The position numbers and the translations under genes are program-made. Below are positions 1,943-48,403 of a DNA stretch of 64,000 nucleotides, one piece after another. The stretch is from positions 1-64,000 of the IMG/VR virus record IMGVR_UViG_3300010400_000003. One strand, given 5' to 3'. Under the pieces are notes generated by a model. The model saw only the letters and a program-made list of their open reading frames with translations. It was not told the DNA's origin and ran no database searches. Origin of the DNA: a virus. Positions within the stretch are counted from its first letter, which is position 1; each line of letters starts with the position of its first letter.

Positions 1943-2932
1943 TCAGAATTCGACGACCAGCAGTGCGGGATCAAGCGGGGTCTGCGCGCCAAGCACGCTG
2001 TCCAAGCAGTAACCGTAGGTCGCCGGCAGCCCGCCGCAGTAGTAGCACATGAGGCCAACCAGCGTCTCGCCCGCAGCTAATGTCGTCGGAGAATCCACCG
2101 GGTTGAAGAAGAACCCGCCGCTGGCGATGGATTGGAGCAGGTCGAACCCGTTGCCCGAGGCGGAGCACCCACAGCAGATGATAATGCCGCCGCTCGCCTT
2201 GAAGTTCGACGCGCGCAACAGGATGCTCTCCCGCTCGGCGGCGTTCAGCGGGCCGGTGAAGTGCTCTCCGTCGGAGAAGATGGTGATGACCTTGCGATCC
2301 GCCGTCTCATCCTCCAGGGCCATGATGGCGACCGTCAGCGCGGCCAGAATGTCCGTCGTGAAGATGGATTGTGGGATGCTCTCCACGGTCGCCAGCGTCG
2401 GCAGGGTCGAGCCGATGGCTTGAACCTCATGCGCGCCGCAGTTGAACCGCCACAGGCCAACCTTGTCCTTTTCCAGCCGCATCCCGTCCATGAACTTGAA
2501 CGCCGTGTCGCGGGCGAACGCCAGGCGCGAGCCGGGAAAGAACGTCATCGCCGAACCCATTGACTTCGAGTTATCAATCAGGACCGCCGTGGCAACCACG
2601 CGATCTTCGCAGCAGTCGTAGCCCGAGCCGACGACTTCGACTTGAGCGGCGGCAACCAAGCCGTCCGCGTTCGTCACGCTGACCGTGCCCACGCCAGCCG
2701 CCAGCAAGGTCGCCACGCCGGTCGAGGCGTTGATCGTCACGACGGACGGCGAAAGGCTCGAGTACGTCAACCCGGTTGTCACCAGCGTCTCGCCGTCGGC
2801 CTCGCGCAGAAAGGTCTTGAACGTGAACTCGCCGACGCAGGCGACGACCAGTTCAGGCTTGAGCACCAGCACGGCATCCACGGTCGGATGATCGGTCGGG
2901 CACGGCGCTTCGGTGACATCGGGGAGGTTCAT
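1943..2932 (-). CDS. Ig-like (Big_2) plus VWA domain protein
   Basis: TYSSLSPSVVTINASTGVATLLAAGVGTVSVT Ig-like segment; MIDAS DNSKS, T, and IFSDGE motifs. Confidence 0.8.
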   Translation of the reverse strand: MNLPDVTEAPCPTDHPTVDAVLVLKPELVVACVGEFTFKTFLREADGETLVTTGLTYSSLSPSVVTINASTGVATLLAAGVGTVSVTNADGLVAAAQVEVVGSGYDCCEDRVVATAVLIDNSKSMGSAMTFFPGSRLAFARDTAFKFMDGMRLEKDKVGLWRFNCGAHEVQAIGSTLPTLATVESIPQSIFTTDILAALTVAIMALEDETADRKVITIFSDGEHFTGPLNAAERESILLRASNFKASGGIIICCGCSASGNGFDLLQSIASGGFFFNPVDSPTTLAAGETLVGLMCYYCGGLPATYGYCLDSVLGAQTPLDPALLVVEF

Positions 2933-2936
2933 GCGT

Positions 2937-3533
2937 TCAGTAGCTCAAGGCGATGCAGACGTTAGTCAGCCAGCCGCCGTCCAGGGCTGTGTCGTCCGCG
3001 ATGTAGATTTTCCAAAGGCCGTTGGCCGTTCCGGCGGACATGCCGGTGAACGTCGAGAAATTGGTGGAGTAGGGACCGGCGGGCGGGCCGGCCGGGAACA
3101 CATAGGACGGGTCGGTGTCTGTCGGTTTGTAGGTCCCGGACCCGGGCGATGGATCGGGCACGTAACTGCCGGCGGAATCGGAAAGTATGATCGTGACGTT
3201 GGTTGCAATCGGCAAAACCCCGCCCGCCCCACCCCAAAACTTGACGGCGCTGTTGTCGGGCGCGACCAGCACCATTTGCAGGTCTGCCGGGAAATTGTGG
3301 GTGAAGTTCGTCAGCGTGACCGTCACTTGGGACAAGCTGCCGGCGATGCCGGAGACACCGAAGTTTATGGGGTACGGCCCCTGCGCTCCTTCGTTCTCGT
3401 CCAACTCGATCACGCCATTCGTACCGCAAAAGTTGGCCGTGCTGCCTGACGCGAATGGCGTCGGGCCTTCAATGTGGATCACCGCGGCAGAAACGGCGGC
3501 GACCAGCAGCAGCCATACGATCACAATTCTCAT
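2937..3533 (-). CDS. signal-peptide protein with proprotein-convertase P-domain-like fold
   Basis: MRIVIVWLLLVAAVSA leader; VTVTLTNFTHNFPADLQMVLVAPD and ANGLWKIYIADD..DGG motifs. Confidence 0.75.
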   Translation of the reverse strand: MRIVIVWLLLVAAVSAAVIHIEGPTPFASGSTANFCGTNGVIELDENEGAQGPYPINFGVSGIAGSLSQVTVTLTNFTHNFPADLQMVLVAPDNSAVKFWGGAGGVLPIATNVTIILSDSAGSYVPDPSPGSGTYKPTDTDPSYVFPAGPPAGPYSTNFSTFTGMSAGTANGLWKIYIADDTALDGGWLTNVCIALSY

Positions 3534-4840
3534 GGCGAAGAAACGTAGGCGAGGACCAGCCCGACTTCGGTTGAGGTCTGCGTGCTGGCATCCTGCGAGG
3601 CATCGCCGTCGCGCGCCAGTCGGATCACCCACAACTGGCCTTGCGTGAGCGCCGCGGCCCAGCCGGTCAGCACGGTCCACCCGACGCTTTCGACATCGCC
3701 GCTGGCGCCGGAGGCATCGCCCGCGAAGTCCAGGTTGATCGCCGTTCCGACCGTCCCAGCGGCGGCTGCGGAGTTGGCCACACTGGCACAGGAGAGGACG
3801 TAACGATGCGTGCCCGTGTCGCCCGCGTTGAGCCGGAACTTGAGCCGGGCGTACAGCGGGAAGCTGGCGTTGAAGTCGGGCGGGCCGTCAAAACGGTATT
3901 GGACGTAGTTCGCCGCCTGATCGGCGGAATGTGAGAATGTCGCGTGCCCGAAATCCAGCGCGGTTGTCGTCGATCCCAGCGTGGCCCCCGTGCCGTCCAC
4001 CTGATGCGGGTGCGTCAGATAGATGTAGTTGGTCGAGCCGTAATTCGTCGAGTTCGCCCAAGCCGTGTGCCCCGCCGTGCTCGTCGCCGTGAGGACCTGC
4101 CCGACCGCCGGAGCGTTGGTCGGCATTTTGGTGAACACCGAACGGTCTGAGGTAAACCCGTTCGTGCCGAAGCCGTGGAAGCCGCCATAGCGACTGACCA
4201 AGCCAACCGTTTCGAGAAATAGCGTCGAGTACCCGGTTGGCGGTGCGCCAACGATCATCGAATTGCGGGCGTTGATTGTGACCGAGTTCTTACTGACAAA
4301 CTCCGTCTGCACCAAGCTGTTGAAGGCTTGCACATCAATTCCGTAAGAACCTTCGAGGTAGGCTCCGAGAAACGATCCCTCCGCTGAGTACAATTTGTTT
4401 TGACCGAGTGAACTATTCCCCGTGCTGTAAAGCGATGCTCCCAAAAACGACCCGTCCACCGCGCTGAGGTTGAAGTTCGTTGAGTTCTCTGCAACAGCCG
4501 CGATAACAGACCCGAGATCGGGCTGAATGCCAAAATTATGAGAGCCGTCGAAATAACCGTTGAGCACTGATCCCTCCAGCACTCGGACGGTGAACTGTGT
4601 TGTGCTGTTGAAGCTGCCGATGAGCATGGACCCGTCGGTAACTGAGAAAATCCCATCCACGTCCGCCGCGTTGAATTCTCCAGCAAAGATTCCGTTCGTC
4701 GGGCTGAAGGCCATGCGGGCGGGGCGCGTGGCAAACAGGACGCCGTTGGTGCCCCTGGCGGACACACCTTGGCTGGGAGCGTCTGCGCCCATTGCCGATA
4801 GCCAAAACGACAGTATTGCCAGACAGAGTAGTTTTTTCAT
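3530..4840 (-). CDS. signal-peptide, beta-rich fibre/spike-like protein
   Basis: MKKLLCLAILSFWLSAMG leader; G/S/T/N-rich repeats; GQVLTATSTAGHTAWAN fibre-type motif. Confidence 0.65.
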   Translation of the reverse strand: MKKLLCLAILSFWLSAMGADAPSQGVSARGTNGVLFATRPARMAFSPTNGIFAGEFNAADVDGIFSVTDGSMLIGSFNSTTQFTVRVLEGSVLNGYFDGSHNFGIQPDLGSVIAAVAENSTNFNLSAVDGSFLGASLYSTGNSSLGQNKLYSAEGSFLGAYLEGSYGIDVQAFNSLVQTEFVSKNSVTINARNSMIVGAPPTGYSTLFLETVGLVSRYGGFHGFGTNGFTSDRSVFTKMPTNAPAVGQVLTATSTAGHTAWANSTNYGSTNYIYLTHPHQVDGTGATLGSTTTALDFGHATFSHSADQAANYVQYRFDGPPDFNASFPLYARLKFRLNAGDTGTHRYVLSCASVANSAAAAGTVGTAINLDFAGDASGASGDVESVGWTVLTGWAAALTQGQLWVIRLARDGDASQDASTQTSTEVGLVLAYVSSP

Positions 4841-5175
4841 ACGTATTGCAGCCATCCGGTGTTTCCGCTGCCGGACTCCTTAACCCAAATTTTCTTGAGC
4901 AGCGTGTTGACGTATCCCGTGCCAGCGACGGCGGTGACGACGCCCTCGGGATCAACGACGCCAAGCTGGAACAATCCCCCGCCGCCGAGATCGAGCACGG
5001 TGTTGAGGAAGTCCACCAAGTCTTGCAGCGTCACCTTGACGTTGGCCAGTTCGGGATGCGCTGAAATCTGCGAGTCGTCCACCATCTCGAACAGGTCCTC
5101 AAGCGCCAGCGGTCCCGCCTCTGGAAGCTCGGTGATCTTCTTCTTTCGTATTCGTACTGGAGTGCAACAACCCAT
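4837..5175 (-). CDS. small tail-fibre-associated protein
   Basis: KKITELPEA N-terminal motif and DPEGVVTA..GY....IWVKESGSGNTGW fibre repeat. Confidence 0.65.
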   Translation of the reverse strand: MGCCTPVRIRKKKITELPEAGPLALEDLFEMVDDSQISAHPELANVKVTLQDLVDFLNTVLDLGGGGLFQLGVVDPEGVVTAVAGTGYVNTLLKKIWVKESGSGNTGWLQYV

Positions 5176-5176
5176 A

Positions 5177-6013
5177 TCAAGTGGCCTCCAACGCCCGGAA
5201 GATTCCGTTTTCCAGCGCCCGCAGCGTCTCGTCGGTGATCGTACACCAGCAGGGCCGGCGGCATGATTCGCTGGGTCGCACGCGCGTTTGCTCCTGGCAT
5301 TCGAGCATCAGGTCCGCCAGCGCCTCGTCGTAAGTGCCGGTCTTTTGATGGTTGTGAATCGTGTTCGCAACCTGGATGTCGCCGTAGTCCCGCTCGTGCC
5401 CGTATTGCAGGTAGAGCTTCACGGCCTTGCGGAAGTCAATCGCGTCGGAAACCGGGTCGTCGTCGGTCCACTGCGAGGCCAGCTTGTTGCCCGCCCACTC
5501 AATGACCAGTAGTTCGGTGGATTGCATCCAAGGTGCAATCAGGATGTTCTCGCCGTCAATGCAGTAGAGGCCGTCTTGCGCGCGACCGCACGCGGCGTCC
5601 GTGCTGGCGCCGGCCCGGCGGAAGCCCAGCGGCATGACCGGCACGGAGGCGTCGTCAGACTCAGGCGCGGGCTGAAGGTTGGCCGCGAAGCACTCGAACT
5701 CCTTGCGGCCGACTTGGCGGTAGAACACTGGCGAACACCACTCCCGCTCGCTGGTGTCCTCGTCAATCTCAACCGTGTAGAGGAAGCGCACGACGCCGCG
5801 AGGCCGCGGCACGATGGTAGTCCCGCACTTGAACCACGTATTGCAAAAGCGGATGACGTTGGCGTTGCGCGACTTCTCGCACGGGACGAACTTCTGGATG
5901 TCGGACAGGGCTTCGAGGACGATCTGGTCGTGGGCCGAAACCAAGTTCTCGCTTTCTGCGTCCGCCCAAATTTGCCGGCGGATGGAAGTTCTAAGTTGTG
6001 ACAAGGTTTGCAT
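5177..6013 (-). CDS. putative head-tail adaptor protein
   Basis: TLSQLRTSIRRQI N-terminal helix typical of adaptors; size; next to fibre-like genes. Confidence 0.55.
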   Translation of the reverse strand: MQTLSQLRTSIRRQIWADAESENLVSAHDQIVLEALSDIQKFVPCEKSRNANVIRFCNTWFKCGTTIVPRPRGVVRFLYTVEIDEDTSEREWCSPVFYRQVGRKEFECFAANLQPAPESDDASVPVMPLGFRRAGASTDAACGRAQDGLYCIDGENILIAPWMQSTELLVIEWAGNKLASQWTDDDPVSDAIDFRKAVKLYLQYGHERDYGDIQVANTIHNHQKTGTYDEALADLMLECQEQTRVRPSESCRRPCWCTITDETLRALENGIFRALEAT

Positions 6014-6761
6014 TTGTCCTGTGGTCGAACACGGCGAAGCCTAACCGTTTCGCACGCGAGAGCAACTCGTCGCTTATCTGCTTTGGTCTGGTCAGATGAA
6101 TCTCGCTGATCCCGCAAATGAACGCGGCAACCAGTGATTCTGGCGTTAGCAGGTGCGATTTGGAATGGTTATCACTTTTCCAAAGCGGTCGAAAATTCCG
6201 GTAGTGCTGGGCCAGCATTATCTGTTCTTGGTTTTTACCACAGCAGGCAGTTGGAAAAATGTGGTCAAGTTGCCACATCGCTCGGTTCTCAAAAGTCATC
6301 CCAGGCTGGAAATTGGAAGCAATCCAGTTCTGGAAAAATCTGGCCGAGCATCCGACGATTGACTCCGTGGTTGACGGCTTCGTTTTTCCCTTGAACGCAA
6401 ACTGGATCAACGCTCGCAGGCGTATCTTCATTGCGACGTGGGGATGCTTTCTGTACCGATCCGATCTCCGCTTCCTACTGAGTTTGAACACCGTCCAGTT
6501 CTTCAATCGGCTGGCTTTAATGCTGGCCTTGACGTGTTCCTTGTTGGCAAGCTTCCACGCCTTCAGTGTGGCTTTCTTCCTTTCAAAGTTCGCCTTCCTG
6601 TAATCCCTTTCGTACCTCTTGACGTGATCTGAATTGGCCTCGATCCATTCCCGCTTTCGACTGGGATGACGCTTCCTCCACTCAGACATTGTGAACAGTT
6701 TGCGAGCGCGCTTGGCTATCAGCGTCGCAATGCTGGTCCTGAGTTGTGCGAGTGTGTTCAT
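5991..6761 (-). CDS. free-standing HNH-type homing endonuclease
   Basis: basic N-terminus; VGCS...GMTFENRAMWQLDHIFP...HYRNFRPLWKSDNHSK. Confidence 0.85.
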   Translation of the reverse strand: MNTLAQLRTSIATLIAKRARKLFTMSEWRKRHPSRKREWIEANSDHVKRYERDYRKANFERKKATLKAWKLANKEHVKASIKASRLKNWTVFKLSRKRRSDRYRKHPHVAMKIRLRALIQFAFKGKTKPSTTESIVGCSARFFQNWIASNFQPGMTFENRAMWQLDHIFPTACCGKNQEQIMLAQHYRNFRPLWKSDNHSKSHLLTPESLVAAFICGISEIHLTRPKQISDELLSRAKRLGFAVFDHRTNANLVTT

Positions 6762-6985
6762 TGTCGCATCAACGCTTGGTTCTCAGGCGTGTTCAGCAAT
6801 CGCTGAAGCGTTTCGCGATAGGAGTCGCTAACACACCTCGACCATCGCGTTGTTTGATACCAGAATGGAGCAGCCTGATCCAATCGCGGCGCTTCGAGCT
6901 TGCGCGCGAACGCAATCTGCGGCGCGAGCGCCACGACCGCGACCATCGCGCCGAGGCGGGAGAAGAATGATCGGCGGGAGTGCAT
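6758..6985 (-). CDS. Tat-signal micro-protein carrying a capsid-like segment
   Basis: SRRSFF, hydrophobic core, AFA cleavage motif; PFWYQTTRWSRCVSDSYRETLQRL matches capsid residues 260-283. Confidence 0.75.
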   Translation of the reverse strand: MHSRRSFFSRLGAMVAVVALAPQIAFARKLEAPRLDQAAPFWYQTTRWSRCVSDSYRETLQRLLNTPENQALMRQ

Positions 6986-7467
6986 CAGGCGGCCTTGGCC
7001 TTCCTCCGCTTCCCGACCTCGGGCTTGTAGTCCGCTGCCTTTGGAAGTTCCTTCGCGATCTGCGCATTGACGGTCGCCTGTGGCGCCGCCTGGCTCAACG
7101 CCGCTGGCACTTCAGGCGCGGGAGGCGGAGGCGGGTTAGCCGCGACCGCAGCAGGAAGTTGGCTGAGGCGCTGGTCGAGCACTGATGTTGATGGCATCAG
7201 CCGGCCTTTGTAAACTTCTTCCCGCCAGGGCGCTTTTAATGGAGGCGAGTTGCTTTTTTTTTGAAGGTAGTCGCTGTCGAACGTGGCGTAGTCAATCTCA
7301 GTGAGGCCGGAACGATTTTCGCGCATACACTGCTCGAAGCCTGACCACAGCGCCGGGTCTTGCGTGCCCAAGAAGCTTTGAACGCCGTCCACGGTTTTGA
7401 AGGCGACCATCCTGCCGTCGGCGAGGCGCACGGGATCCACGCCAAGATGCCTGAAATATCGCGTCAT
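6985..7467 (-). CDS. hypothetical protein, Pro/Ala-rich C-terminus
   Basis: ORF coupled to downstream gene. Confidence 0.65.
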   Translation of the reverse strand: MTRYFRHLGVDPVRLADGRMVAFKTVDGVQSFLGTQDPALWSGFEQCMRENRSGLTEIDYATFDSDYLQKKSNSPPLKAPWREEVYKGRLMPSTSVLDQRLSQLPAAVAANPPPPPAPEVPAALSQAAPQATVNAQIAKELPKAADYKPEVGKRRKAKAA

Positions 7468-7514
7468 GCGAGGCGACAATACCACTCGCCCGCGCCTTGC
7501 AAAGCGAAAAAGCG

Positions 7515-8207
7515 TCAGCCGTCCGCCGCCAGTCCCCACTTCTTGCGCAGATACGCCGTCGGATTGAAGTCGGTTGCCGGTCCTTGCGGCGCGTGTTTCC
7601 GCACCGCTTCAATCAGATGGTCGCAGCGGGCGTTCAGGCAGATGCCGGCCTTTAGATGGTTGCGCTCTAAGAAGTAGAACAGGTCCGCGTCAATCTCCCA
7701 CAGGTCAAACGCCTCGTCCCACATCCAGCCGTCGCGTCGCCGAAAGACGTTAACGCCGGCGGACGGGTTGCCCGTGTGGATGATGCGGCGCTCGTTCACG
7801 ATCCGGTGCTGGACGCACGGCATGTTCAGGTCGTCGAAGCTCCAGTTGCAGAGCGTGAAGTAATCCGGGTTCTCCCGCCAAAGATCCACGATGTTCTCCA
7901 GCCAGTTCGGAAAGTAGATCACGTCCGATGTGCCGTGGGCGATGAACTCGCCGGTCGTCGTGCGCGTGCCGTCGTTGAAAATCTTCGAGATGCTGAATGG
8001 GCCGTCCCACATTCGGACGCCGATGCCGAGCATCTCGCATTGGTTGCGGAGGCGGTCCAGCCGAACGCTGGGCGGGCTGTTGTTGATGTAGGCCCACACG
8101 CGCGCAGTCGTGGACGCCTGGCAGGTCCGCAACGCCATCACCGCCATGTGATAGGTTTCCTCGGTGGCGGTTGTTACCGGAATTATTACGTCGGCGTCGA
8201 GGCTCAT
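7515..8207 (-). CDS. GT2/GT-A glycosyltransferase
   Basis: DVIIPVT, INNS, FSISKIFNDG, FIAHGTSDVIYFPNWLE, WDEAF..WEIDAD. Confidence 0.85.
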   Translation of the reverse strand: MSLDADVIIPVTTATEETYHMAVMALRTCQASTTARVWAYINNSPPSVRLDRLRNQCEMLGIGVRMWDGPFSISKIFNDGTRTTTGEFIAHGTSDVIYFPNWLENIVDLWRENPDYFTLCNWSFDDLNMPCVQHRIVNERRIIHTGNPSAGVNVFRRRDGWMWDEAFDLWEIDADLFYFLERNHLKAGICLNARCDHLIEAVRKHAPQGPATDFNPTAYLRKKWGLAADG

Positions 8208-21165: not shown

Positions 21166-21666
21166 TCAGGTAGCGATTCCAGCGCAGTCGTTTCTGGAAA
21201 AGCATCTGAGCCGGTTATTCTCCGGTTCGATCGGCCTGACGTTTGAGAAGTGAGCAGCCTTCAGAACTTGTGATTCAATGGTGAGATCGAAGGAACCAAG
21301 CGGGGCGATGTGGTCGCACTCCCAAAGGTCGCCGTAGTTCTCCCACGACCAGCCCGGCTTGAACTGAGAGGCGATATGCCTGCGAAAGTCTGCTGGTGAG
21401 CAGGCGAGCACCTTTGAGTGACGTTTCGACTTTGGGTGGTAAACGATGGCGTTTCGAACTGCGGCGTAGATCCGGCGCATGTTGATGTGGTGCCTCCGAG
21501 GCTTGCTAACCGCGGCGAGGTATTCGGCCTTGGTTTTCATCCCGAGCCGCAAGCGACGCGATGCGTTGATTTCCTCTCGGTGAGCGTCTTTGTGGGCGAG
21601 TATATTCGCCCGGTTAGCGGCGTAGTAGGCTTTGTTCCTGGCGCTTCGTTCCTCGATTGTTTCCAT
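21166..21666 (-). CDS. free-standing HNH-type endonuclease
   Basis: LACS...GWSWENYGDLWECDHIAP..SFDL...HFSNVRP. Confidence 0.8.
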   Translation of the reverse strand: METIEERSARNKAYYAANRANILAHKDAHREEINASRRLRLGMKTKAEYLAAVSKPRRHHINMRRIYAAVRNAIVYHPKSKRHSKVLACSPADFRRHIASQFKPGWSWENYGDLWECDHIAPLGSFDLTIESQVLKAAHFSNVRPIEPENNRLRCFSRNDCAGIAT

Positions 21667-21721
21667 AGGCGTGATTCCAGCAGAACCACGTGGAACTGTC
21701 AACGGTTTGTTTCCAGCGAAA

Positions 21722-21982
21722 CTACGTTTGTCCGCGCACGCCGGCGTCCTGTCCATGGCCGTCGGGTTGGCGGCGTGGCTCGACCTGCGAGTGCCCTCGG
21801 GATGTCAGCCAAGCCGGCCAAGTGGCCGGATCTTCCGGGCGGTAGGTCGCGGTGTAATCAGGCGGCGGTAGCGGGCAACCGAGCGGGCAGGGTTCGTGGA
21901 CGGTGATGGTCGGGGCGAATCGGTCGGGGCGGGCGATCATGCCGGTACTCGAGCAGATGGGGCAGGGGCGTCTGGCGCTCAT
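21722..21982 (-). CDS. Zn-finger hypothetical protein
   Basis: CPICSSTG, CPLGC. Confidence 0.45.
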   Translation of the reverse strand: MSARRPCPICSSTGMIARPDRFAPTITVHEPCPLGCPLPPPDYTATYRPEDPATWPAWLTSRGHSQVEPRRQPDGHGQDAGVRGQT

Positions 21983-47431: not shown

Positions 47432-48403
47432 ATGAAAGCAATGACATGCACAAAAACCCACACGCAGTTGCCCTTGGACGCCGGGGCGGTAAAATCGGAG
47501 GGCGTTCCCGTTCGCGTCGGAAAGTTCTTGCGGCTCGCAGGAACGTCAGACTTGCAGGACAAGCGAGAAAGAAGGCTGCAAGCAATTCGGCGCTACAAGG
47601 CCAAGCTCAAAGCGGAAACCCGCATTGACGGCAGGCTGTTCCGGTTCGTGTTTCGGAATCCTGAATATCGGAGGATCGAGAAAACGATTGATTGGAAGAA
47701 GGTGTTTGCCGAAAGCCGATCTGAGATGAAGCCGATACCGCTGTCGGAGCACTTCCAGGCCTGGGCGGCAACCGGCGATGCCAACATGCTTAGATTTCTG
47801 TCGGTGCTGCTGGCCCTGAACTACCGATCAATTTGCGAGATCAAGCACAACCACGTTTCGCAAATGCTTTTCAAGCGACCGTCGCAGCGGATGTCGAGGG
47901 AGAAGCGCAAGGAGGTAAACGCGAAGTATCGCGATTATCGCAAGGAGTATTACAAGAAGCGCAGGACTGATCCTGAATACGTCGCTCAACTCCGCAAGCA
48001 GGGCGCCGTGGATTTTCAAAAACACAAGCAGCGCATTTACGCCTACCGCAACAACCGTCGCAAGACCGACCCCCAATACAAGATCAGTAGCAACCTCCGC
48101 ACGTACATCTACCAGCGCGTCGGCAAGAAGAACACGACGGGCCAGAGCCGTTTCCGCGAGATCGTCGGTTGCTCGATTGAGGAGTTTTGCAAATGGCTGG
48201 AGTCCCATTTGGCACCCTGGATGAATTGGACGAATTATGGTTCCGGTCCCGGGCAATGGAGCATTGACCACACGCGGTGTTGCGCGTCGTTTGACCTGAC
48301 GGACCCCGAACAGGTGAAGCAGTGTTTTCATTATTCCAATATGAAACCCATGCTCCACCGCGACAACCTCTCCAAAAGCGACAAACTTCCCGCAATCTCG
48401 TGA
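47432..48403 (+). CDS. free-standing HNH-type homing endonuclease (true start may be later)
   Basis: IVGCSIEE...MNWTNYG...WSIDH...SFDLTD..Q..CFHYSNMKPM...NLSK. Confidence 0.85.
   Translation: MKAMTCTKTHTQLPLDAGAVKSEGVPVRVGKFLRLAGTSDLQDKRERRLQAIRRYKAKLKAETRIDGRLFRFVFRNPEYRRIEKTIDWKKVFAESRSEMKPIPLSEHFQAWAATGDANMLRFLSVLLALNYRSICEIKHNHVSQMLFKRPSQRMSREKRKEVNAKYRDYRKEYYKKRRTDPEYVAQLRKQGAVDFQKHKQRIYAYRNNRRKTDPQYKISSNLRTYIYQRVGKKNTTGQSRFREIVGCSIEEFCKWLESHLAPWMNWTNYGSGPGQWSIDHTRCCASFDLTDPEQVKQCFHYSNMKPMLHRDNLSKSDKLPAIS
47446..47628 (+). CDS. small basic protein
   Basis: KNPHAVALGRRGG.IGG motif; overlaps 5' part of the endonuclease ORF. Confidence 0.5.
   Translation: MHKNPHAVALGRRGGKIGGRSRSRRKVLAARRNVRLAGQARKKAASNSALQGQAQSGNPH

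Follow-up and report, generated by a model that had tools for sequence, protein, structure and literature searches.

It was long held that a homing endonuclease can spare the gene that it enters only from within an intron or an intein or by using an intergenic gap. How, then, could such an enzyme settle within the start of a structural gene and leave that gene whole? The question is raised by a stretch of 64,000 nucleotides (hereafter the window) that comprises positions 1-64,000 of the virus record IMGVR_UViG_3300010400_000003, a complete 75,285-nt genome of an uncultured phage, with direct terminal repeats, from a soil metagenome assembly. Here, a 256-aa open reading frame (ORF) for a putative HNH-type nuclease begins with a near copy of the first 11 residues of the gene that follows it, a 278-aa gene (gene X) that is predicted to encode a head-to-tail adaptor. 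An earlier note, made from the letters of the window alone, had proposed that the endonuclease invaded the 5' end of the structural gene, kept its start and translational coupling, and brought along a recoded replacement start. On balance, we consider it probable, though far from certain, that the locus is a free-standing HNH-type homing cassette seated about 11-13 codons inside the adaptor 5' end, in which the start that now serves the adaptor is the replacement (copy B) and the start that is fused to the nuclease is the displaced native one (copy A).

Copy A (ATG AAC ACA CTC GCA CAA CTC AGG ACC AGC ATT) encodes MNTLAQLRTSI, and copy B (ATG CAA ACC TTG TCA CAA CTT AGA ACT TCC ATC) encodes MQTLSQLRTSI. 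The two agree at 9 of 11 residues (82%), exactly as the earlier note had read them, and at 21 of 33 nucleotides (64%). Their longest exact DNA match is 7 nt; in a repeat search they appear as a direct repeat that is 27 nt long, with 70% identity and a distance of 748 nt between the copies. As a chance test, the N-termini of 75 complete nuclease-family members from viral contigs, together with the window's three copies, were each compared with their own downstream region. The window locus scored 9/11, the next best locus scored 6/11, and 590 mismatched controls reached at most 6/11. Because this family-wide control never rose above 6/11, coincidence is excluded; the start match is real, and members of the nuclease family do not as a rule show one. 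That the shared N-terminus was kept for the sake of protein function, or else arose by coincidence, is an explanation that we hold to be very improbable. A functional version of it, to which we would attach just as little weight, is that the first helix of the adaptor docks the nuclease at the portal or neck or on the procapsid, such that the enzyme would travel with the virion or sit at the site of DNA entry and attack co-infecting relatives. Adaptor residues 4-15 and nuclease residues 2-31 are indeed both modelled as confident helices, and copy A is perfectly conserved in a second carrier described below. Nevertheless, a helix of 11 residues would receive a confident model almost automatically, and nuclease homologues elsewhere do not have the peptide. 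If docking did occur, it would be a case of a homing nuclease borrowing the assembly tag of a structural protein.

The earlier note also stated that almost every codon differs between the copies and that the functional copy had been recoded. As a count the first statement is accurate, since only one of the eight shared residues that allow a synonymous choice (Gln) has the same codon in both. However, 2.9 identical codons of eight are expected from phage codon usage and one or fewer would be seen with P = 0.14, so the divergence is not beyond that given by random synonymous choice, and recoding, in the sense of selection for changes at synonymous sites, is not called for. When both are set against ten distant endonuclease-free relatives over 30 nt, copy A has 15-20 identical positions and copy B has 13-20, and neither copy is consistently the odd one out; it is with these distant relatives that the DNA comparison called for in the note was made. 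The two copies have fewer codons in common than do distant orthologues, in which 44-56% of identical residues have the same codon, a weak comparison given that it involves eight codons only. Two natural alleles from diverged lineages would explain the difference in spelling as well as recoding, and both immunity and protection from recombinational loss would follow from such an origin too. In composition, copy B has the lowest GC content of the region at 0.394, and its GC content at third codon positions (GC3) is 0.45, rising to approximately 0.8 from codon 12. A Shine-Dalgarno-like AGGA precedes the adaptor ATG in the window, and no AGGA-like ribosome site was found before the adaptor start in the endonuclease-free relatives examined.

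Evidence for the nature of the nuclease comes largely from its relatives. An alignment of 57 sequences has invariant residues at N159, W163, D166, H167, N189, P192 and N198, and nearly invariant ones at P170, Y187, W194 and K201; the DH...N...N arrangement is the pattern of His-Me-finger nucleases. Compared with PHROG, 52 of the 57 relatives have a match to "endonuclease VII" (phrog_1035; best 7.9e-32) and 14 to "HNH endonuclease" (phrog_2255). By tblastn, the protein is clearly homologous to cultured-phage genes annotated as HNH endonuclease or endonuclease VII, the best being HNH genes of Flavobacterium phages (E=6e-20), and it is homologous to at least 558 stretches in IMG/VR. The AlphaFold2 model (pLDDT 94) places a strand-strand-helix at residues 163-201. 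Its structural matches are weak (Foldseek E of 0.12 or higher; VIA Z of 4.0 or lower, with an rmsd of 3.3 Å over 64 residues) and nearly all are HNH domains that align with residues 139-245, including Cas9, Vvn/EndoI, BrxU, Gme HNH and Cap5. A wide structural search was dominated by coiled-coil matches to the helical N-terminal half, and a PDB sequence-profile search returned noise only. Because of the invariant DH...N...N residues, the phrog_1035 matches among relatives, the annotated HNH homologues and the HNH-type structural matches, we assign the 256-aa ORF to the HNH-superfamily nucleases, with the fold itself a tentative assignment.

Several independent signs suggest that this nuclease is a mobile element. 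The GC content of the nuclease body is 0.513, as compared with 0.629 in the remainder of the adaptor gene and approximately 0.61 upstream. Two paralogues are present in the same 75-kb genome, at 21166-21756 on the minus strand and 47432-48403 on the plus strand, neither of which shows a duplicated start of its neighbour. The family occurs in two of five related virus records and is absent from a complete 78-kb record. Among 5.8 billion proteins there is one close copy of the nuclease only (73% identical), located on a contig of 2,419 nt, and at the protein level no close homologue was found on adaptor-bearing contigs of 78,813, 77,055, 66,004, 76,956 and 77,244 nt. In distant relatives, the conserved upstream gene that we refer to as up184 directly abuts the adaptor gene. 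In addition, 12 of 75 viral-contig homologues of the nuclease contain one or two in-frame stops within the matched region, and these are either decaying copies or genes of phages with a reassigned stop codon. From these signs we infer mobility, and the earlier designation of the gene as a homing-type endonuclease agrees with an HNH-type protein of low GC content, sporadic distribution and paralogues at other sites. The homologues with in-frame stops are L016, L027, L036, L053, L064, L065, L073-L076, L084 and L086. Immediately after the major capsid gene comes the paralogue at 47432-48403, and L001 has a nuclease gene in the same place (2774-3514).

The nuclease lies outside any intron or intein, in that no intron-like RNA was found and the adaptor is complete without the insert. 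A search of positions 4800-7700 against Rfam gave no intron match, the best hit being a snoRNA model at E=0.085, and the description of the element as intron-free therefore fits. The alignment of the adaptor with its 25 homologues begins at residue 1. Its AlphaFold2 model (pLDDT 83) matches the podophage adaptors of SU10, A4, VP1, GP4, crAss001, N4 and KHP30 by Foldseek with E-values of 2e-6 to 1e-3 and a probability of 1.0, and a comparison of the protein with Pfam and PHROGs gave nothing significant. On the strength of the model, whose fold is that of a podovirus head-to-tail adaptor, the name of adaptor that the earlier note gave to gene X holds, and the protein is intact from its first residue. 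Within it, residues 12-40 are nearest to the homologue P0007 (90%) and residues 1-11 are equal to those of another homologue, P0008; this combination suggests a possible recombination breakpoint at codon 11/12. Scans for close relatives were otherwise of little yield: IMG/VR has adaptor homologues at 35-53% identity only, GTDB genomes contain a single one (41%), no homologue was found among GenBank phages, and two scans of JGI metagenomes for close relatives found none. The only adaptor homologue in species-representative genomes, L012 (JBAZRU010000047.1), is on a 17-kb contig of a Candidatus Hydrogenedentales metagenome-assembled genome (MAG), which could be a clue to the host or could reflect a phage contig that was binned with the MAG. 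Separately, the 112-aa gene that follows the adaptor gene (4837-5175, minus strand; its product ends in ...VVDPEGVVT...GNTGW...) is fused to the adaptor C-terminus in P0024-P0026, three more distant adaptor homologues of 371-381 aa.

Given the match between the two starts, we looked for the same similarity in homologues, and the layout recurs in one other carrier. The nearest nuclease homologue, P0028, is 73% identical and starts MNTLAQLRTSIVR; its N-terminus is MNTLAQLRTSI followed by VR, and these 13 residues are the first 13 of the adaptor homologue P0005. Copy A of the window is identical to the first 11 residues of both P0005 and P0028. The 2,419-nt contig of P0028 apparently also carries an adaptor that is 80% identical to that of the window (P0003, the presumed neighbour), and P0028 ends in NANSVTA, which is the exact -1 frame of the P0003 start MQTLSQL. 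The two peptides are compatible only as two frames of one 23-nt stretch, and the stretch can therefore be reconstructed. So reconstructed, the second carrier shares 20 of 23 nt with copy B and 16 of 23 with copy A. Judged from these peptides, the whole layout, that is, an adaptor-type start, the nuclease, a 23-nt overlap and a B-type start, is conserved in a second genome. By comparison, the nucleases P0029 and P0030 (45-47% identical) have unrelated leaders of similar length. The homology of the window nuclease to these two proteins starts at approximately residue 11-15, and the fusion is therefore likely to lie at codon 11-13. The C-termini of up184 do not allow the adaptor 5' DNA of close relatives to be reconstructed in the same manner, as up184 ends there ahead of the adaptor gene.

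The second carrier also bears on a more conservative explanation, namely that an old local duplication of the adaptor 5' end, or a long-fixed insertion, was followed by drift, with the nuclease now stable or domesticated and no longer homing, and the synonymous differences a simple measure of age. Codon differences equal to the random expectation would fit this explanation, as would the sharing of the arrangement by two carriers whose nucleases are only 73% identical, and contigs from the source sample show no endonuclease-free variant, although that result by itself counts neither way. Against it, no such nuclease was found in the nearest relatives of genome length, and a low-GC nuclease of a family that is scattered over hundreds of viral contigs, with stops in 12 of 75 homologues, fits a cycle of gain and decay. 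Furthermore, copy A is conserved at 11 of 11 residues between nucleases that differ at 27% of residues (P of approximately 0.03 if positions are uniform), which argues against free drift. We think an old duplication or fixed insertion quite unlikely.

If the locus is instead a homing cassette, the cassette would be composed of the nuclease body, the AGGA site (6017-6020) and copy B, the last supplying a replacement start and the first 11 codons. This makeup is suggested because copy B has the lowest GC content and rare codons, GC3 jumps at codon 12, AGGA is absent in endonuclease-free relatives, and a breakpoint is indicated at codon 11/12. Copy B would keep the adaptor protein whole. The displaced native start, copy A, would retain the ATGA coupling to the upstream gene and serve as the start of the nuclease ORF, and the displaced piece would be read as the nuclease N-terminus because it carries both the start codon and the upstream coupling. 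To this extent, the proposal that the start and its translational coupling were kept is in agreement with the sequence, in which the nuclease has an adaptor-type N-terminus and is ATGA-coupled to up75, the small ORF that precedes it. In a mixed infection, the nuclease would cut the uninterrupted adaptor 5' end of a cassette-free relative, and repair would then copy the cassette into the cut relative. The half-sites of the carrier would remain uncut, presumably since the insertion interrupts one of them and the other differs in its spelling. Given 12 mismatches in 33 nt and no exact match longer than 7 nt, the two copies would hardly recombine, and therefore the nuclease gene would not readily be deleted. 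As to its origin, the structure most likely arose by one-sided double-strand-break repair, part homologous and part illegitimate, from a donor in which the nuclease lay just upstream of a diverged adaptor allele; one-sided illegitimate double-strand-break repair has been shown for T4 introns (review PMC2988022).

Several points weigh against this interpretation. Both carriers have the same copy A, and a single old insertion fits this as well as active homing does. The absence of the nuclease in relatives was judged from protein matches and contig sizes, and the closest endonuclease-free relatives were compared at the protein level, where copy A is the start of P0005. The nuclease protein itself matches no Pfam or PHROG model significantly, reaching Pfam HNH_5 only at E=0.15, below the cut-off, and its structural Z-scores are at most 4. 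The codon divergence of the copies is within random synonymous expectation, and neither of them is consistently nearer to the ten distant relatives. Genes often begin with AT-rich codons in any case (GC3 is 0.45-0.55 in L001 and L006), making the composition of copy B weak evidence. Finally, there are other insertions at the junction of up184 and the adaptor gene, namely up75 and a 156-aa ORF in L009, and the history of the site may have been multi-step.

The main alternative concerns polarity, that is, which copy is native. With the opposite polarity, copy B would be the resident start, and the nuclease would have arrived already fused to copy A from an earlier host and been dropped upstream by illegitimate recombination, possibly with up75. 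Since up184 abuts the adaptor gene in distant relatives, up75 and the nuclease together are extra DNA, which is in keeping with such an arrival. Likewise, any ORF that enters the adaptor start in that frame reaches the same stop, as does up184 in L001, the end of which runs 23 nt into the adaptor gene; hence the overlap is no sign that copy B belongs to the cassette. The adaptor start in L001 also shares 20 of 30 nt with copy B versus 15 of 30 with copy A. Nevertheless, neither copy is consistently nearer across the ten relatives, and the lowest GC content, the rare codons and the new AGGA site belong to copy B and not to copy A. Nor is up75 an obvious passenger, being a member of a widespread small-protein family with normal GC content. 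We consider this polarity unlikely, because up75 belongs to a large family and has a normal G+C content, the up184 proteins of close relatives end as does that of the window, and the junction seems to be a general insertion spot. A candidate homology between the NANLVTT tail of the nuclease and the NANPATT tail of up184 in L001, under which copy B would be resident, was rejected, as both tails are the first codons of the adaptor gene in the -1 frame.

Elements that replace a gene end have been described in other genomes, and the homing cassette proposed here resembles them in anatomy. In the mORF gene hybrids of fungal mitochondria, an endonuclease ORF introduces a C-terminal segment of foreign origin, and the native segment stays behind as a downstream duplicate, as in atp6 of Allomyces macrogynus and atp6, atp9, cox2 and nad3 of Glomus sp. 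(PMC3630166). Both there and here, an endonuclease gene lies within one end of an essential gene, a replacement end is (here presumably) brought in, and the displaced native end forms a duplicate; the duplicates are alike in protein and far apart in DNA, with 63.5% nucleotide and 91% amino acid identity in the mORF hybrids (PMC3630166) and 64% and 82% in the window. However, the mORF hybrids involve the 3' end, LAGLIDADG or GIY-YIG nucleases and organelles, whereas the locus described here involves the 5' end, an HNH-type nuclease and a phage, and its displaced piece keeps a start codon and is translated as the nuclease N-terminus. Furthermore, native and foreign ends of mORF hybrids were settled by DNA of sister species, whereas our comparison is with distant relatives and with proteins. 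In the WHO elements of Torulaspora and Lachancea yeasts, the 3' end of FBA1 is replaced at each integration, with no splicing and with allele-specific cleavage (PMC7282813). These too are unorthodox, splicing-free homing elements that replace the end of a target gene, but they act on a 3' end in nuclear genomes, have intein-derived nucleases, form clusters by repeated homing, and have had their cleavage demonstrated; at the window locus, cleavage is a presumption. The anatomy of gene-end replacement is present in the window, with a nuclease flanked by two copies of the target-gene end and the gene whole through one of them. Because the 5' end is duplicated here and the 3' end in mORF hybrids and WHO elements, the locus is a mirror-image variant of gene-end-replacement cassettes and not a strict member of that group.

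Among phages, intronless homing is known for the free-standing seg and mob endonucleases of T4-like phages and for F-CphI of cyanophage S-PM2 (PMC2988022, PMC6083498). Like these, the window nuclease is free-standing, located between or beside phage genes and sporadic among relatives, and it would presumably spread by double-strand-break repair with co-conversion of flanks and with immunity through sequence differences in the target. In contrast, seg and mob genes are intergenic or divide a gene such that its product is made as two polypeptides (mobE in Aeh1 nrdA; mobA in T4 gene 60), and the review that covers them mentions no duplicated gene end and no captured-start fusion (PMC2988022). The DHHRN group, to which F-CphI and endonuclease VII belong, has DH-x-H (PMC6083498), whereas the window nuclease is without DH-x-H and has DH-I-F-P instead. 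The hidden HNH insertion of the ShiLan type, in the methylase gene of an actinophage (PMC11855218), is likewise an HNH homing element, neither intron nor intein, that lies within a phage coding sequence and does not disable the host gene. However, its in-frame translation adds a loop to the host protein, and the HNH is encoded out of frame, whereas at the window locus a duplicated start keeps the gene whole. A literature search gave no phage example of an endonuclease with a duplicated gene start at its flank, and the nearest phage cases are the gene-splitting mob insertions and the in-frame hidden HNH (PMC2988022, PMC11855218). A spare copy of the gene end is a third solution to the problem of sparing the host gene, documented to date for 3' ends in fungal mitochondria and yeast. 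In the 5'-end version of a phage, the nuclease would take over the translation start and coupling of its target and the target would gain a fresh ribosome site and start, with the difference in spelling both protecting against self-cleavage and blocking recombinational deletion. If general, such an arrangement would explain odd short duplicated gene starts or ends beside phage nuclease genes and mosaic 5' ends of structural genes, and it would mean that gene callers routinely mis-describe such nucleases.

Table. Positions of the features discussed, in window coordinates.
Feature	Position	Strand	Remarks
Nuclease ORF, 256 aa, helical basic N-terminal half	5991..6761	-	Putative HNH/His-Me-finger endonuclease
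Nuclease-specific insert body, low G+C	6014..6728	-	GC 0.513; homology to P0029/P0030 from ~residue 11-15
Predicted catalytic motif D166-H167, N189, P192, W194, N198	6168..6266	-	57-sequence alignment
Copy A, adaptor-type start fused in frame to nuclease	6729..6761	-	MNTLAQLRTSI; presumed displaced native adaptor start
Copy B, functional adaptor start and first 11 codons	5981..6013	-	MQTLSQLRTSI; AT-rich, rare codons; presumed cassette-borne replacement
AGGA, Shine-Dalgarno-like	6017..6020	-	3 nt before adaptor ATG, within nuclease 3' end
Nuclease/adaptor overlap, 23 nt	5991..6013	-	Last 7 nuclease codons (NANLVTT) and TAG are adaptor codons 1-8 in the -1 frame
Adaptor gene X, 278 aa, intact	5177..6013	-	Predicted head-to-tail adaptor fold
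up75, 75-aa ORF, twin-arginine-like leader	6758..6985	-	Stop overlaps nuclease start, ATGA at 6758-6761
up184, conserved gene	6985..7539	-	Adjoins adaptor gene upstream in distant relatives L001-L012 (tblastn)

The locus is part of a minus-strand operon that runs from up184 through up75, the nuclease ORF and gene X to fibre-like genes. Every junction between up184 and gene X is coupled, by TGATG between up184 and up75 (the TGA of up184 shares 1 nt with the next ATG), by ATGA between up75 and the nuclease, and by the 23-nt overlap between the nuclease and gene X. No noteworthy sigma-70-like promoter or minus-strand terminator was found between 4800 and 8300. The up184 homologues of close relatives end in KAKAA, the same as up184 of the window. 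The ORF up75 has matches at E of 1e-3 or lower to at least 100 cluster representatives with lengths of 60-140 aa, its GC content of 0.60 is phage-like, and it is not at the corresponding position in L001-L012; up75 is probably a resident gene that lies outside the cassette. Members of the up75 family (60-140 aa) have a SRRSFF...ALAPEIAF leader followed by a PFWYQT.R..C..Y motif, and the latter is also found mid-way in the major capsid protein of this phage group (45573-47339 in the window; 940-2712 in L001). That up75 is a scrap of capsid gene brought along with the nuclease was considered and rejected, since a large family of small proteins indicates real genes. In L009, an unrelated 156-aa ORF of unknown function (3517-3987) is located between the up184 homologue and the adaptor gene; together with up75 and the nuclease in the window, this suggests that the up184/adaptor junction is an insertion hot spot. 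Lastly, a 15-nt stretch over the up184 stop and up75 start (6982-6996) recurs with one mismatch at 7194-7208 inside up184, 212 nt upstream, which may be due to chance or may represent a recombination microhomology.

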